Made by a program: the position numbers and the translations under genes. Shown here one piece after another: positions 3,279 through 61,588 of a stretch of 64,000 nucleotides of DNA. The stretch's first letter is position 1. Each line of letters opens with the position of its first letter. Origin of the DNA: Escherichia coli (lineage in GTDB: Bacteria > Pseudomonadota > Gammaproteobacteria > Enterobacterales > Enterobacteriaceae); assembly GCF_024502345.1 (NCBI RefSeq), contig NZ_JALDNN010000001.1. One strand, given 5' to 3'. Under the pieces are notes generated by a model. That model had not been told where the DNA came from and made no database searches. It was given only the letters and a program-made list of their open reading frames with translations.

Positions 3279-3352
3279 ACTCGTGGCTGCTAATACTACC
3301 GTTTTCCACACCGATTGCAAGTAAGATATTTCGCTAACTGATTTATAATTAA

Positions 3353-5113
3353 TCAGTTAGCGATAAAACGCTTCTCGTCTGTCAGTACTTGCAATAACAA
3401 ACTTAACTGTGGTTTTTCATCTTTCACTCTTTCACCACGTAAGTTGTAAGTGCGGTATTTACCGTTATTGTTCAGCACCAGCGTCTTTTTCGGAGTGGTA
3501 ATTGCCAGCGTATCGTTATCCGCTGCGGTAACCCAGTAATGACGGCGTTGAGGGTTGAACAAATCCTGACCTTGCGAATATTCGCTGGCAGGTGTGCTGA
3601 CATGTAGCAGGCGTTGCATCAGCGTCGTCATCAGATCGGTATGATCAGTCAGAGCATTAATACGCTGCGCCGGCGTGCCTGGCCAGTGAATCACTAATGG
3701 CACCTGCAGATGACCGTGGGACCAGTCAAAGGTTTCTTCCTCTTCGCTCAGTGGAATACCCCGAGCGGCAGTGATAATCACCACCGTATTGTCCAGTTTG
3801 CCAGAATCACGCAGTGCATTGAGCACACGGTTGATCTGGTCATCGACATTGCCTGCCGCCCGGCTATATTTCCGTGCAAATGCCTGCTGATTGCTGTCGT
3901 CAATGTTAGTACCATTGAAAGAGACCCACGAGAACCAGCGGTTATCTTCTTGTGCGTAGCGTCCCAGCCAGTTGATCCACTGCGTGGCGGTCTGCTCGTC
4001 GGATTGGGTGCGTACGCTCGGCATCGAGAAATCTGACAACAATGCCTGGCGATACAGCGGGCTGGTAAAGCCATCTGATGAGAATAACCCCAGCTGATAG
4101 CCTTGCTGATTAAGCGCAGTAATTAATGCCGCAGGCGTACGGGTCGACAGAATGCCGTCCATATAGCTCGGCGAGATGCCATAGAACAGGCCAAAGATGC
4201 CGTTGTCTGTAGTGTTGCCGGAGCTCATATGGCGCGTGAACGAAATATTTTGCTCAGCAAAACCTGCCAGCGCAGGCATCTGCTTCTCGAAGCGTGAGTA
4301 GTTCAGGCCATCGACAGTAATCAACAGCACATTCTGCCCGGTGCCCATATCGCGATAGCGCAGTTCGCTTAACGGATACTGAACGGAAACGGCGTCTGGA
4401 TTACCTTGCTCAATAAGACGGCGTTGATACTCCTGCGCATCAAGCAGGCCATGCTTCTCAAGAAAACGTCGCGCCGTCATCGGGTACGAAAGCGGCAGGT
4501 TAGCGCGCTGCATGGTGATAGGGCGATAGAAGTTGGCATCGGCCCAGATATACACCACATGCGAGGCGATAAAGGCGATAAATAAGAATGCGGCCAGCGG
4601 GCGCGCGAAGCGTCGACGACGCGTCAGGCTGCGCAGCTTTTGCCAGCTCCACGTCGCAAACACCAGTTCAAGCAATAAAATAACCGGCACGCTGATGAAC
4701 ATCAGCTGCCAGTCGCGCGCCATCTCATTTTCGTCTGGGTTGATAACCAGTTGCCAGACGATGGGATTAAGATGGAGATGGAAACGAGTAAAGACTTCGC
4801 TATCGATCAGTAATAGCGTCATTCCCGCCGTTGCCAGAATGACGGACAAAAACCTCATCAGCCTCTGGGAGCCGACGATAAAGGTCAGCGGGAAGAGGAT
4901 CAGCAAGTAGGTGGCGAACACCAGGAAGCTGAAATGGCCGATAATGCTTACGTAGGAATAAATGCGACCAGCAAGCGTGGTCGGCCAGTCGGCGATAAAC
5001 AGGTAACGGCTGCCAATGACGAGCGAAAGCAGAATATTGAACAGTGCAAACCAGTGCCCCCAACTGACCATCTGGGAGACTTTTTCACGGTAGCGCTGAC
5101 GATGAGTTACCAT
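3353..5113 (-). CDS. yejM: inner-membrane cardiolipin transport / LPS-regulation protein PbgA (YejM)
   Basis: 586-aa ORF recognised as YejM; conserved position upstream of proL. Confidence 0.9.
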   Translation of the reverse strand: MVTHRQRYREKVSQMVSWGHWFALFNILLSLVIGSRYLFIADWPTTLAGRIYSYVSIIGHFSFLVFATYLLILFPLTFIVGSQRLMRFLSVILATAGMTLLLIDSEVFTRFHLHLNPIVWQLVINPDENEMARDWQLMFISVPVILLLELVFATWSWQKLRSLTRRRRFARPLAAFLFIAFIASHVVYIWADANFYRPITMQRANLPLSYPMTARRFLEKHGLLDAQEYQRRLIEQGNPDAVSVQYPLSELRYRDMGTGQNVLLITVDGLNYSRFEKQMPALAGFAEQNISFTRHMSSGNTTDNGIFGLFYGISPSYMDGILSTRTPAALITALNQQGYQLGLFSSDGFTSPLYRQALLSDFSMPSVRTQSDEQTATQWINWLGRYAQEDNRWFSWVSFNGTNIDDSNQQAFARKYSRAAGNVDDQINRVLNALRDSGKLDNTVVIITAARGIPLSEEEETFDWSHGHLQVPLVIHWPGTPAQRINALTDHTDLMTTLMQRLLHVSTPASEYSQGQDLFNPQRRHYWVTAADNDTLAITTPKKTLVLNNNGKYRTYNLRGERVKDEKPQLSLLLQVLTDEKRFIAN

Positions 5114-11599: not shown

Positions 11600-13189
11600 T
11601 CAGCTCAACGCCAGTAGCTGACGCGTATACTCCTGCTGCGGTGTGGCAAACACGCGCGCGCACGGTCCTTGTTCCACTACTTCCCCTTGTCGCAGTACGA
11701 TAACCTGATGACATAACGCGCGGACAACGTGCAAATCGTGGCTGATAAACAAATAGGCCAGTTGATGCTTTTGTTGCAATGATTTCAATAGCGTCAATAT
11801 TTGCGCCTGTACCGTTTTGTCGAGTGATGATGTCGGTTCATCAAGTATGATCAGCGAGGGCTTAAGAATTAATGCCCTGGCAATCGCAATACGTTGTCGC
11901 TGACCACCAGAGAACTCCGCCGGATAACGGTGGCGTGTTTCAGGATCTAATCCCACTTCATGCATCACGGCTATCACTTGTTGTTCGCGTTGTGCGGCAG
12001 AAAGCGTCGGCTGGTGAACCCGTAAGCCTTCCTCAATAATCTGCAAAACGTTGAGTCGTGGGTTGAGCGAGGAGTTTGGATCCTGAAATACCACCTGAAT
12101 GCGATGACGAATAGGTAACAGCTGGCGGCGATTTAAATTTTGCAGTGGCTGACCGTCAAAGATGATGCTGCCCTGAGAATTAATCAGTCGCAGCAGCGCC
12201 AGTCCCGTCGTACTTTTCCCGGAACCGGACTCGCCCACTAAACCCAGTGTTTCACCCGCTCGTAGCGTAAAACTGATGTTTTTCACCACCACATTATGAT
12301 CCACAATGCGCTTCAAAATCCCTTTGCGAATGGGGAAGGCAACCTGAAGCTGTTCAACATCCAGCAACGTTGAGGCAGGTTCTGGCAACGGCACTGGATC
12401 GCCTGACGATTCACTGTTGAGTAGCTTTTGTGTGTAAGGATGAGTGGGTGAGGCAAATAGCGTAGCGGCGTAATTTTGCTCGACACAGCGACCGTTTTGC
12501 ATTACCGCCACGCGGTGGGCCAGTTTTCTGACAATGCTGAGGTTATGAGTAATAAACAGCATGCCCATATTCAGCTCGCCTTGCAGTTCGCGCAACAGCT
12601 GTAAAATCTGCGCCTGGACAGAGACGTCCAGTGCGGTGGTCGGTTCATCGGCAATTAATAATTCCGGTCGCGTTAACAGCGCCATCGCAATCATCACCCG
12701 CTGGCGTTCGCCGCCGGAGAGCTGATGCGGATAATCTGTCAGCCGTTTTGCCGCCTGGCGGATACCAACGCGATCAAGGCAGTTAAGAATTTCGCCACGA
12801 GCCGCTTCCCGACGCATCCCGCGGTGGAGTGAAAGCACTTCATAAAGCTGTTTTTCCAGGGTATGCAATGGATTTAACGACACCATCGGCTCCTGAAAAA
12901 TCATGGCGATCTTATTACCACGTACGCCGCGCAACGTTTGATCGCTGGCATGAAGCAGCGATTCGCCATGAAAACGAATATCGCCGGAGAGATATTCAAC
13001 CGGCGGGGAAGGGAGCAGGCGTAAAATTGACAGCGCGGTAACGCTTTTGCCTGAACCAGACTCACCCACCAGCGCCAGCGTTTCGCCAGCCTCAATCTGT
13101 AGTGAAACATCATTTACTACTGTACGTACGGTTTGCTGATGGCGAAAACCCACCGACAAATCTTCAATCGCTAACAGAGTTTGCGTCAT
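11600..13189 (-). CDS. yejF: ABC transporter ATPase YejF (duplicated ATP-binding domains; peptide/microcin C uptake)
   Basis: Two Walker A motifs (GESGSGKS twice) and two LSGG signature motifs; start taken at MTQTLLAIE (529 aa). Confidence 0.9.
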
Positions 13190-58964: not shown

Positions 58965-59166
58965 TTAATTCGTAAAACGTGCTACCGATCACATTAAGAA
59001 ATCAGCGCTTATTTTTTCGCTCCCCGGCATTACGCAATGCGCAACGAACTCAGGCATACATCAAGCATAGAGAGGGATTGCAGTTTGCAGCAATCCCTCT
59101 TTGTAGACCTTTAATCCGCTGACCATAGGCGCTAACATAGCGCCTCATTATTTTGCGGGTGATGAT

Positions 59167-60117
59167 ATGCGTGTGTTACTGGCACCGATGGAGGGAGTGC
59201 TTGACTCTCTGGTGCGTGAATTGCTGACCGAAGTTAACGACTACGATCTGTGCATCACCGAGTTTGTCCGCGTGGTGGATCAACTGCTGCCGGTAAAAGT
59301 CTTTCATCGCATTTGCCCTGAGCTACAAAACGCCAGCCGGACACCATCTGGTACGCTGGTGCGCGTGCAGTTGTTAGGTCAGTTCCCACAATGGCTGGCA
59401 GAGAACGCCGCCCGTGCGGTGGAGTTAGGTTCCTGGGGCGTGGATCTCAATTGCGGCTGCCCGTCGACAACGGTTAACGGTAGCGGCGGCGGGGCGACGT
59501 TACTCAAAGATCCTGAACTCATCTACCAGGGGGCAAAAGCGATGCGTGAAGCTGTACCGGCGCATTTGCCTGTCAGCGTGAAAGTGCGTCTGGGCTGGGA
59601 CAGCGGTGAGAAGAAATTTGAAATCGCCGATGCGGTTCAACAGGCTGGCGCTACGGAGCTGGTGGTGCATGGGCGGACGAAAGAGCAGGGTTACCGCGCG
59701 GAGCATATTGACTGGCAGGCGATTGGCGAGATTCGCCAGCGGCTGAATATTCCGGTGATTGCCAACGGTGAAATCTGGGACTGGCAGAGCGCGCAACAAT
59801 GCATGGCGATCAGCGGCTGCGACGCAGTGATGATTGGTCGCGGGGCGCTCAATATTCCCAACCTGAGCCGGGTGGTAAAATATAACGAACCGCGAATGCC
59901 GTGGCCGGAGGTGGTTGCTTTGCTGCAAAAATATACCCGTCTGGAAAAGCAGGGCGATACCGGGTTATATCACGTAGCGCGGATTAAACAGTGGTTGAGT
60001 TATTTGCGTAAAGAATACGATGAAGCAACAGAATTATTTCAGCATGTTCGGGTGTTGAATAATTCCCATGATATTGCAAGGGCTATTCAGGCAATTGATA
60101 TCGATAAGCTGCGATAA
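59167..60117 (+). CDS. dusC: tRNA-dihydrouridine(16) synthase DusC
   Basis: Product with conserved Dus catalytic Cys (LNCGCP) and TIM-barrel flavin-binding pattern; recognised as DusC/YohI. Confidence 0.9.
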
Positions 60118-60504
60118 TAGTGGAATCGCAGCTTATCAGAGACAATGAATCGCTTATTCAGCTTCATCATCTTGTTGCGCTCCTTTCATGAACTAAGCCA
60201 CATATTGCCACTGGCGCAAGGTGCGCGCAGAGGGAGGACAATCGCCTCCTCCCCCTGCACCCCCGGGCTCTGGCGAACAAAATCGCCGCTGCGCGGTACC
60301 TTCAGCTTATCCCCTTCGGCTACCGGGTCGGGCGCGAGGTAACGTCCTTGTAAGACGCGCCCTCAGCCCACATCCATGTGGGCTGCCCCGGCCTTCGGGG
60401 AACGCTTCAGCGATTTTGACGCCACCAACACCGGAGCTGTTTGCAAATCAAGTACAAAAAATATCTAGTTCCTGACCTGACAACTTATATGCCATATCTG
60501 ATTT

Positions 60505-60588
60505 TTAAAATATCATCTTAAATACGCCAGTCACCACCAGTAGCCCAATCAGGAAAATAATCAATACAGCCCAGAGTATAATTTTCAT
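60505..60588 (-). CDS. yohP: 27-aa small hydrophobic membrane protein (YohP-like)
   Basis: Minus-strand ORF MKIILWAVLIIFLIGLLVVTGVFKMIF, below the ORF-track size cutoff; identification is from memory of the K-12 small protein. Confidence 0.55.
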   Translation of the reverse strand: MKIILWAVLIIFLIGLLVVTGVFKMIF

Positions 60589-60800
60589 TGGCGTTCCTTT
60601 ATTTGTGAGTGCTGAATAAGTATAGGAAAAAACGAAGCCCTTCGCTGTCATTTATAAGTGATTAAGATAAATCGGAGAATATCATTCACTTAGTCTATAT
60701 TTTTCTGGGTATGTCGTTTTATTGCTACTGATGTATTGCCACGCGGGTGATGCTGCCAACTTACTGATTTAGTGTATGATGGTGTTTTTGAGGTGCTCCA

Positions 60801-61076
60801 GTGGCTTCTGTTTCTATCAGCTGTCCCTCCTGTTCAGCTACTGACGGGGTGGTGCGTAACGGCAAAAGCACCGCCGGACATCAGCGCTATCTCTGCTCTC
60901 ACTGCCGTAAAACATGGCAACTGCAGTTCACTTACACCGCTTCTCAACCCGGTACGCACCAGAAAATCATTGATATGGCCATGAATGGCGTTGGATGCCG
61001 GGCAACCGCCCGCATTATGGGCGTTGGCCTCAACACGATTTTCCGCCATTTAAAAAACTCAGGCCGCAGTCGGTAA
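60801..61076 (+). CDS. insA: IS1 InsA (transposition repressor / N-terminal transposase part)
   Basis: 91-aa product [43 protein letters not shown]... Confidence 0.95.
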
Positions 61077-61498
61077 CCTCGCGCATACAGCCGGGCAGTG
61101 ACGTCATCGTCTGCGCGGAAATGGACGAACAGTGGGGATACGTCGGGGCTAAATCGCGCCAGCGCTGGCTGTTTTACGCGTATGACAGGCTCCGGAAGAC
61201 GGTTGTTGCGCACGTATTCGGTGAACGCACTATGGCGACGCTGGGGCGTCTTATGAGCCTGCTGTCACCCTTTGACGTGGTGATATGGATGACGGATGGC
61301 TGGCCGCTGTATGAATCCCGCCTGAAGGGAAAGCTGCACGTAATCAGCAAGCGATATACGCAGCGAATTGAGCGGCATAACCTGAATCTGAGGCAGCACC
61401 TGGCACGGCTGGGACGGAAGTCGCTGTCGTTCTCAAAATCGGTGGAGCTGCATGACAAAGTCATCGGGCATTATCTGAACATAAAACACTATCAATAA
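60995..61498 (+). CDS. insB: IS1 InsB reading frame (expressed as InsAB' by -1 frameshift)
   Basis: 167-aa ORF in the -1 frame relative to insA, recognised as IS1 InsB. Confidence 0.9.
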
Positions 61499-61588
61499 GT
61501 TGGAGTCATTACCTGCCACGCGAAACTAAAAAATATATCGCAACACACGGTAATCTCCGCGCACCGTTTCTTACCTGATTATTCCCCC

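Follow-up and report, generated by a model that had tools for sequence, protein, structure and literature searches.

In the stretch of Escherichia coli DNA analysed here (64,000 nt, referred to below as the window; nearest match E. coli strain GF3-3, 99.1%), the coding sequence of dusC runs straight into a perfect inverted repeat that takes in the stop codon. What is this repeat doing at the end of the gene? It might shape the 3' end of the mRNA, act as a site in the DNA, or be a by-product of the events that formed the spacer between dusC and its convergent neighbour, yohP. In E. coli genomes that are 97–99% identical to the window, the gene is annotated as tRNA dihydrouridine(16) synthase DusC. 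Literature on dusC in combination with terminator, sRNA or yohP yielded no account of its 3' end, and dusC is not mentioned in the supplementary files of PMC7815308 that were consulted.

The stem-loop at the end of dusC

The features of the region, in window coordinates, are as follows.

59167–60117, + strand: dusC (from the ORF list), 316 aa, ending ...IDIDKLR, with the stop codon TAA at 60115–60117
60103–60115, + strand: left arm of the repeat, GATAAGCTGCGAT; the four sense codons that close dusC (GAT AAG CTG CGA; D K L R), then T, the first base of the stop codon
60116–60124, + strand: loop, AATAGTGGA, 9 nt; completes the stop codon (AA) and contains a further in-frame stop, TAG (60118–60120)
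60125–60137, + strand: right arm, ATCGCAGCTTATC; non-coding, an exact inverted copy of the left arm, single-copy in the genome
60138–60215, + strand: candidate Rho-loading (rut-like) stretch, proposed from its composition (44% G+C, C/G = 1.62)
60163–60466 (core from about 60157 or 60170 to 60428), - strand, which is its RNA-like sense here: repeated structured element of ~300 bp, inverted in the K-12-type haplotype
60505–60588, - strand: yohP, encoding a 27-aa small membrane protein, convergent with dusC (ORF list and annotation in matching genomes)

A preliminary description of this sequence proposed a perfect 12-bp inverted repeat around an 11-nt loop that contains the dusC stop codon. Both 12-mers are present, and one extra pair (T60115-A60125) lengthens the stem to 13 bp: the repeat finder returns 13 perfect pairs (60103–60115/60125–60137), 100% complementary and 9 nt apart. 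The loop is hence 9 nt rather than 11 nt long; the stop codon does fall in the loop region, with TAA spanning the last stem pair and the loop. The whole of 60103–60137 reads GATAAGCTGCGAT-AATAGTGGA-ATCGCAGCTTATC.

Folded as + strand RNA, this sequence reaches -20.3 kcal/mol (z = -6.26), and none of 200 shuffled sequences folded as well. The - strand RNA gives -21.1 kcal/mol (z = -6.0), and the hairpin as DNA gives -14.2 kcal/mol. Six of the 13 stem pairs are G-C, and the hairpin persists when it is folded within a 221-nt context. The tail on the 3' side of the stem—AGAGACAAUG (AGAGACAATG) on the + strand, GATATCAATT on the - strand—contains no U-tract in either direction, and a consensus scan for intrinsic terminators makes no call at the hairpin. 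The earlier statements that no T-run follows the repeat, and that it is not a canonical intrinsic terminator, are thus borne out, the former on both strands.

Dinucleotide shuffling of the 64-kb window yields 0.033 perfect stems of 13 bp or more with a 3–20-nt loop per shuffled window (in 3% of shuffles). Such a stem is unusual for a single window, but the figure extrapolates to about two by chance per ~4.6-Mb genome. The window itself contains two perfect short-loop stems of this length. The second is a 13-bp inverted repeat at 3331–3363 (TCGCTAACTGATT-TATAATT-AATCAGTTAGCGA), with no T-run after it on the + strand. Among Rfam matches with E ≤ 1, the sole overlap with the dusC hairpin is a chance-level match to snoZ199, a eukaryotic snoRNA (60131–60198, minus strand; 22.9 bits against a gathering threshold of 47, E = 0.83), which covers just the last 7 nt of the right arm. 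The hairpin is a real and very stable, but ordinary, feature.

Two forms of the dusC-yohP spacer

The hairpin belongs to one of two forms of the spacer between dusC and yohP. The form seen in the window (haplotype A) occurs in 2002 of 5426 complete E. coli genomes (~37%). Each of these has a single copy of the 65-nt hairpin region, invariably located at dusC. K-12 and most other E. coli (~63%) carry haplotype B, which is without the hairpin. In haplotype B, dusC ends ATC GAG AAA CTC TAA and encodes 315 aa as opposed to 316, and the end of the gene folds locally at about -7 kcal/mol at best. The 272-bp core of the spacer is the reverse complement of that in the window, at 88% identity. Since most E. 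coli do without the hairpin, it is dispensable.

In position and possible effect the hairpin resembles REP/BIME and other enterobacterial palindromic repeats, which are likewise extragenic palindromes at gene 3' ends and can stabilise the upstream mRNA. It differs from them in being single-copy (one place per genome in 2002 genomes) and in having one coding arm.

Of the species representatives, E. albertii, E. whittamii, Escherichia sp. E1V33 and 'E. coli E69' carry haplotype A, and two further Escherichia clusters carry haplotype B. In E. albertii a deletion has removed yohP and all but the first ~95 nt of the neighbouring element; the hairpin is retained, and the sequence then joins directly to the mdtQ upstream region (L008 about 1090–1400; L101 about 12000–12300). 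Conservation of the stem among dusC orthologs, with compensatory changes, had been suggested as a check on the significance of the repeat. The outcome is divided: the stem persists in the haplotype-A lineages of Escherichia, with one compensatory change, but it is not conserved in the dusC of other genera and is absent from the ~63% of E. coli that include K-12.

Outside Escherichia, the 3' flank of dusC is unrelated. The right arm is absent from Citrobacter, Salmonella and other genera and is, with the ~390-bp spacer, specific to Escherichia. The Citrobacter amalonaticus-type dusC ends ...K L R/H stop (AAA TTG CGT TAG), and is followed by a canonical terminator (GGCCACCGGAGTGGCC + T-run) and then by the end of yohP. 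As the K-L-R ending is common to this dusC and that of the window, the left arm can be taken as native, ancestral coding sequence. As for the right arm, no other source copy was found in the genome, and a local inverted duplication of the final 13 nt of dusC is its probable origin.

Outside Escherichia, dusC often ends within or beside a hairpin of some kind, and hairpins with unrelated stems occur at the stop codon itself. These were read by eye, as individual cases, among 80 orthologous loci; two automated surveys of the same loci were set aside (one was fixed-length, and the control distribution of the other was lower than its signal). Some Citrobacter spp. (L011, L012, L021) have the stop-codon hairpin CGGCCA-TAATAGG-TGGCCG plus CGTCAT/ATGACG, with no U-tract, while Pectobacterium (L024, L027, L030, L032, L033, L049) has GGTGAGC...GCTCACC at the dusC stop, with a U-rich tail; in both genera the loop takes in the stop codon. 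A hairpin at this 3' end is therefore a recurrent arrangement, which suggests that stop-codon hairpins are commonplace at the compact convergent pair dusC/yohP.

The surroundings of the hairpin escaped the preliminary description. Some 20–25 nt beyond it begins the ~300-bp repeated structured element listed above, the orientation of which depends on the haplotype (the counterpart of its core in the K-12-type form is L001 1777–2047). E. coli genomes hold about 3–4 copies, located in the dusC-yohP, aqpZ-lysO and putP-efeU spacers and at one further site, and Klebsiella has up to 12 places in one record (L084–L088 and L120–L125 are element-copy loci). In MG1655 the element carries no annotation. 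Its only Rfam signal is a full-length match to TwoAYGGAY (RF01731) at 60280–60419 on the minus strand, at 28.4–30.9 bits and so below the gathering threshold of 43. With respect to the AYGGAY motif, the first loop (AUGGAU) fits, and the second (AAGGAC or AGGGAU) has a purine at a Y position. When 12 copies are aligned, compensatory double changes are seen at 15 of the 79 pairs of their consensus fold; on this basis we regard the element as a genuine structured element. Its identification as a BoxC/TMECO triplex repeat was considered and rejected on consensus mismatch. The element family, missed by Rfam at threshold, and its orientation dimorphism are in our view more interesting than the hairpin.

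Could the hairpin be a part of this mobile or repeated element? This was rejected: the hairpin region is single-copy, and the element begins only after the gap given above. An active invertible switch was likewise rejected. The two orientations are only 88–89% identical (88.6% for the two dusC-locus copies), and the aqpZ copy is a closer match (94.9%) to that of K-12. In neither haplotype are there inverted-repeat pairs of at least 9 nt at both boundaries of the inverted segment, which rules out terminal inverted repeats or recombination sites of that size around it. From these comparisons, the orientation dimorphism is best read as old, or as the result of re-insertion or gene conversion, and not as an active switch.

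The aqpZ and putP copies are flanked on the corresponding side, within 0–25 nt, by the canonical terminator of the neighbouring gene, and 'gene end - hairpin - element' is thus a common layout. Two smaller features of the element at dusC were also considered. Firstly, a third copy of CAGCTTATC lies inside it, at 60303–60311, and is complementary to GATAAGCTG of the dusC left arm; the copy is probably there by chance (p about 0.03) and has not been preserved in E. whittamii. Secondly, a 65-aa ORF (60145–60342) starts 8 nt past the hairpin. Its candidacy as a hairpin-regulated small gene was dropped: the ATG is lost in E. whittamii (AGG) and in E69 (ATA), and the frame is not common to the other copies of the element, so that the ORF looks spurious.

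Alleles of the stem

Alleles of the hairpin were counted by allele-specific searches among the 2002 carrier genomes. A perfect stem accompanied by a substitution just outside it (A60138T) is found in 1109 carriers and the exact allele of the window in 36, so that the perfect stem is kept in at least 1145 of the 2002. In a further 489 carriers, C60133T converts a G-C pair to G.U. Among the remaining carriers, the O157:H7 allele has a second G.U pair that results from A60104G, a change of Asp to Gly. One strain has a 4-nt duplication in the loop, and metagenome contig L114 has a synonymous change, CTG to CTA, that breaks one stem pair. The stem of E. whittamii and E69 contains one mismatch and one G.U pair. 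In E. albertii, AAG has become AGG in the left arm (Lys to Arg) and T has become C in the right arm, a compensatory replacement of A-U by G-C; the top of the E. albertii stem is disrupted, and one lineage has a further mismatch.

On the + strand, the perfect stem folds at -20.3 kcal/mol, and the G.U alleles and one E. albertii allele at -17.3 to -18 kcal/mol. Weaker alleles are those of E. whittamii and E69 (-14 to -15 kcal/mol) and of E. albertii L008, the weakest (-13.4 kcal/mol). A stem of -13.4 kcal/mol or lower is present in every haplotype-A lineage (E. coli, E. albertii, E. whittamii, sp. E1V33 and 'E69').

Does this variation bear the mark of selection? In the ten alleles, 96.2% of cells are paired, and one pair shows a double change (the single event in E. 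albertii). The covariation score of these ten alleles is matched in 15 of 500 shuffles, which does not count as significant on the calibration of the method. The stem has undergone five transitions; pairing survives as wobble on the + strand in three cases and on the - strand in two, as neutrality predicts; an attempt to assign the functional strand by means of G.U-compatible variants, promising early on, was abandoned when more alleles gave this result. Alignments counted by hand show roughly three times as many changes per nucleotide in the right arm as in the 33 nt that follow it, and E. coli and E. albertii have the same sequence at 60138–60170. The short divergence time is by itself enough to explain why the stem persists across Escherichia. 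Overall, the alleles point only weakly to selection for the hairpin.

Roles and origins considered for the hairpin

The reading that we favour, tentatively, is one of mRNA protection: the hairpin could well be a lineage-specific, U-less terminal stem-loop that caps the 3' end of the dusC mRNA. This corresponds to the transcript-stabilising 3' hairpin of the preliminary description, the option that its anatomy suits best. Dar & Sorek 2018 (PMC6061677) reported that the steady-state 3' ends of Rho-dependent E. coli transcripts lie directly downstream of stable stem-loops. These are of terminator-like size, have no U-rich tails, are followed by an enrichment of C over G, and give protection from PNPase and RNase II (PMC6061677). 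The dusC hairpin shares with this class (i) a stable, terminator-sized stem-loop, (ii) the lack of a U-rich tail, (iii) an excess of C over G just downstream, and (iv) a position at the end of an ORF, before a long untranslated region. It departs from the class in that its stem takes in the final four codons and some of the stop codon, and in being carried by only ~37% of E. coli. The published Term-seq work concerns strain K-12, which is without the dusC hairpin. The excess of C is local: C/G is 1.62 in the 78 nt after the stem (60138–60215) versus 0.67–0.68 within and upstream of it. This bias may simply mirror the G-rich sense strand of the neighbouring element, which lies on the other strand.

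The match in anatomy to the published class, together with the jump in C/G from 0.68 to 1.62, leads us to favour a course of read-through, Rho termination and trimming. RNA polymerase would read through the hairpin, there being no U-tract, and the ribosome would halt at the UAA in the loop region. The untranslated, C-rich and G-poor stretch downstream would then allow diffuse termination by Rho, after which 3'-to-5' exonucleases (PNPase, RNase II) would degrade the RNA as far as the base of the 13-bp stem. The product would be a defined and protected dusC 3' end in which the entire ORF and its stop codon are retained. All of the steps that involve RNA ends, Rho or exonucleases are ones that we infer from the likeness to the published class. 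Most carriers have the stem as a perfect palindrome, so that it folds equally well on the convergent yohP/element transcript and could cap that RNA too.

A hairpin of this kind carries little weight on its own; it would be another U-less stem-loop that sets or protects an mRNA end, in this case at a non-essential tRNA-modification gene. The locus does, however, provide a natural experiment, in that close strains differ cleanly in the presence of the hairpin and in the orientation of the element. Given these clean differences, a comparison of dusC/yohP transcript ends and stability between such strains could test the protective stem-loop model in vivo without engineering.

A neutral origin is almost as probable as a protective cap, given that K-12 and most E. 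coli do not have the hairpin and that the signal of selection is weak. The hairpin would in this case be a by-product without selected function, left at the margin of a rearrangement-prone spacer by local inverted duplication or by templated mutation of the quasipalindrome type, and carried along with one of the two old haplotypes. Quasipalindrome or template-switch mutations (Ripley, Lovett and others) are a suitable class for comparison. The dusC hairpin resembles them in having a perfect short inverted repeat with a small spacer and one pre-existing arm, and in the paired, two-arm change of E. albertii; it differs in that no imperfect precursor or intermediate allele was found among its alleles, and its origin by this route is presumed. 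The right arm repeats the adjacent coding 13-mer exactly in inverted orientation, has no other copy in the genome, and lies ~20 nt from the boundary of the 272-bp segment that is reverse-complemented in the other haplotype. Also in keeping with neutrality are the non-significant covariation, the strand-neutral wobble pattern, the tolerance of disruptive variants, the faster evolution of the right arm relative to its flank (hand count), and the extrapolated chance expectation of about two perfect 13-bp stems per genome. Set against these are the stem of -13.4 kcal/mol or lower that all carrier lineages have kept since before the split of E. coli and E. albertii, and the one compensatory change in the latter. 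Moreover, by extension from PMC6061677, a stem of -20 kcal/mol at an mRNA 3' end would impede exonucleases whether it was selected or not.

A more elaborate reading, which we think unlikely, ties the hairpin to the history of the element. On this view, a replication template-switch would have installed or flipped the TwoAYGGAY-like element between dusC and yohP and left the hairpin, an inverted duplication of the last 13 nt of dusC, as its junction scar. Both arrangements would then persist as an old, trans-species Escherichia polymorphism that swaps which mRNA carries a structured 3' UTR RNA, with the hairpin insulating the two transcripts in one of the two states. If this were true, the element would be in sense with yohP and accompanied by the hairpin in one state, and in sense with dusC and without the hairpin in the other.

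It is also improbable that the hairpin has its role on the minus strand, as the 3'-terminal structure of a convergent yohP transcript that would run through the element and meet the hairpin about 25 nt later. Folding is equally good on that strand (-21.1 kcal/mol, z = -6.0), which is also the RNA-like sense of the element here, and at the aqpZ and putP copies a strong hairpin (the terminator of the neighbouring gene) lies within 0–25 nt on the same side of the element. That strand likewise has no U-run after the stem, however, and common alleles act against it: C60133T (489 genomes) weakens the - strand hairpin to -14.4 kcal/mol, and the O157 lineage has -9.7 kcal/mol, while the + strand hairpin stays at -17 kcal/mol or lower.

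Very improbable and unsupported is a site that works at the level of DNA, be it a palindromic operator for a dimeric protein, as in the protein-binding palindrome that the preliminary description offered as its other option, or a cruciform or recombination site that flips the neighbouring element. The dyad symmetry is perfect (13 + 13 bp), and the boundary of the orientation polymorphism is close by. Yet a 9-bp spacer between 13-bp arms is atypical for operators, and common alleles break the symmetry of the DNA. The site being single-copy, there is none of the recurrence that would be looked for in a regulon. As for flipping, the far edge of the inverted segment has no inverted repeat to match, and the identity of only about 88% between orientations speaks against an active switch.

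Finally, it is hardly credible that the hairpin is a functional intrinsic (Rho-independent) terminator of dusC: it resembles canonical and bidirectional terminators, such as that of C. amalonaticus dusC/yohP (GGCCACCGGAGTGGCC + T-run) and those that other genera have at or near the same position, in being a strong stem-loop (13 bp, -20.3 kcal/mol, six G-C pairs) between convergent genes, at or near the dusC stop and foldable on both strands, but it has no U-tract on either strand (+ strand tail AGAGACAAUG), G-C in only 6 of 13 pairs, no recognisable similarity of sequence to them by eye, and no call in the consensus scan.

Two other features of the locus lie outside the spacer core. Between yohP and mdtQ, at about 60750–61500, the window has what we take to be an IS1 copy, presumably so from its likeness to InsA, with an InsA-like ORF at 60801–61076 and an InsB-like ORF at 60995–61498; IS1 is absent from this position in the matching E. 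coli genomes inspected (GF3-3, K-12). On the other side of dusC, in the divergent yohJ-dusC region, a terminator-like hairpin (AGGCGCTAACATAGCGCCT + CATTATTTTG) is located at 59127–59145 on the + strand, ~20 nt upstream of the dusC start.
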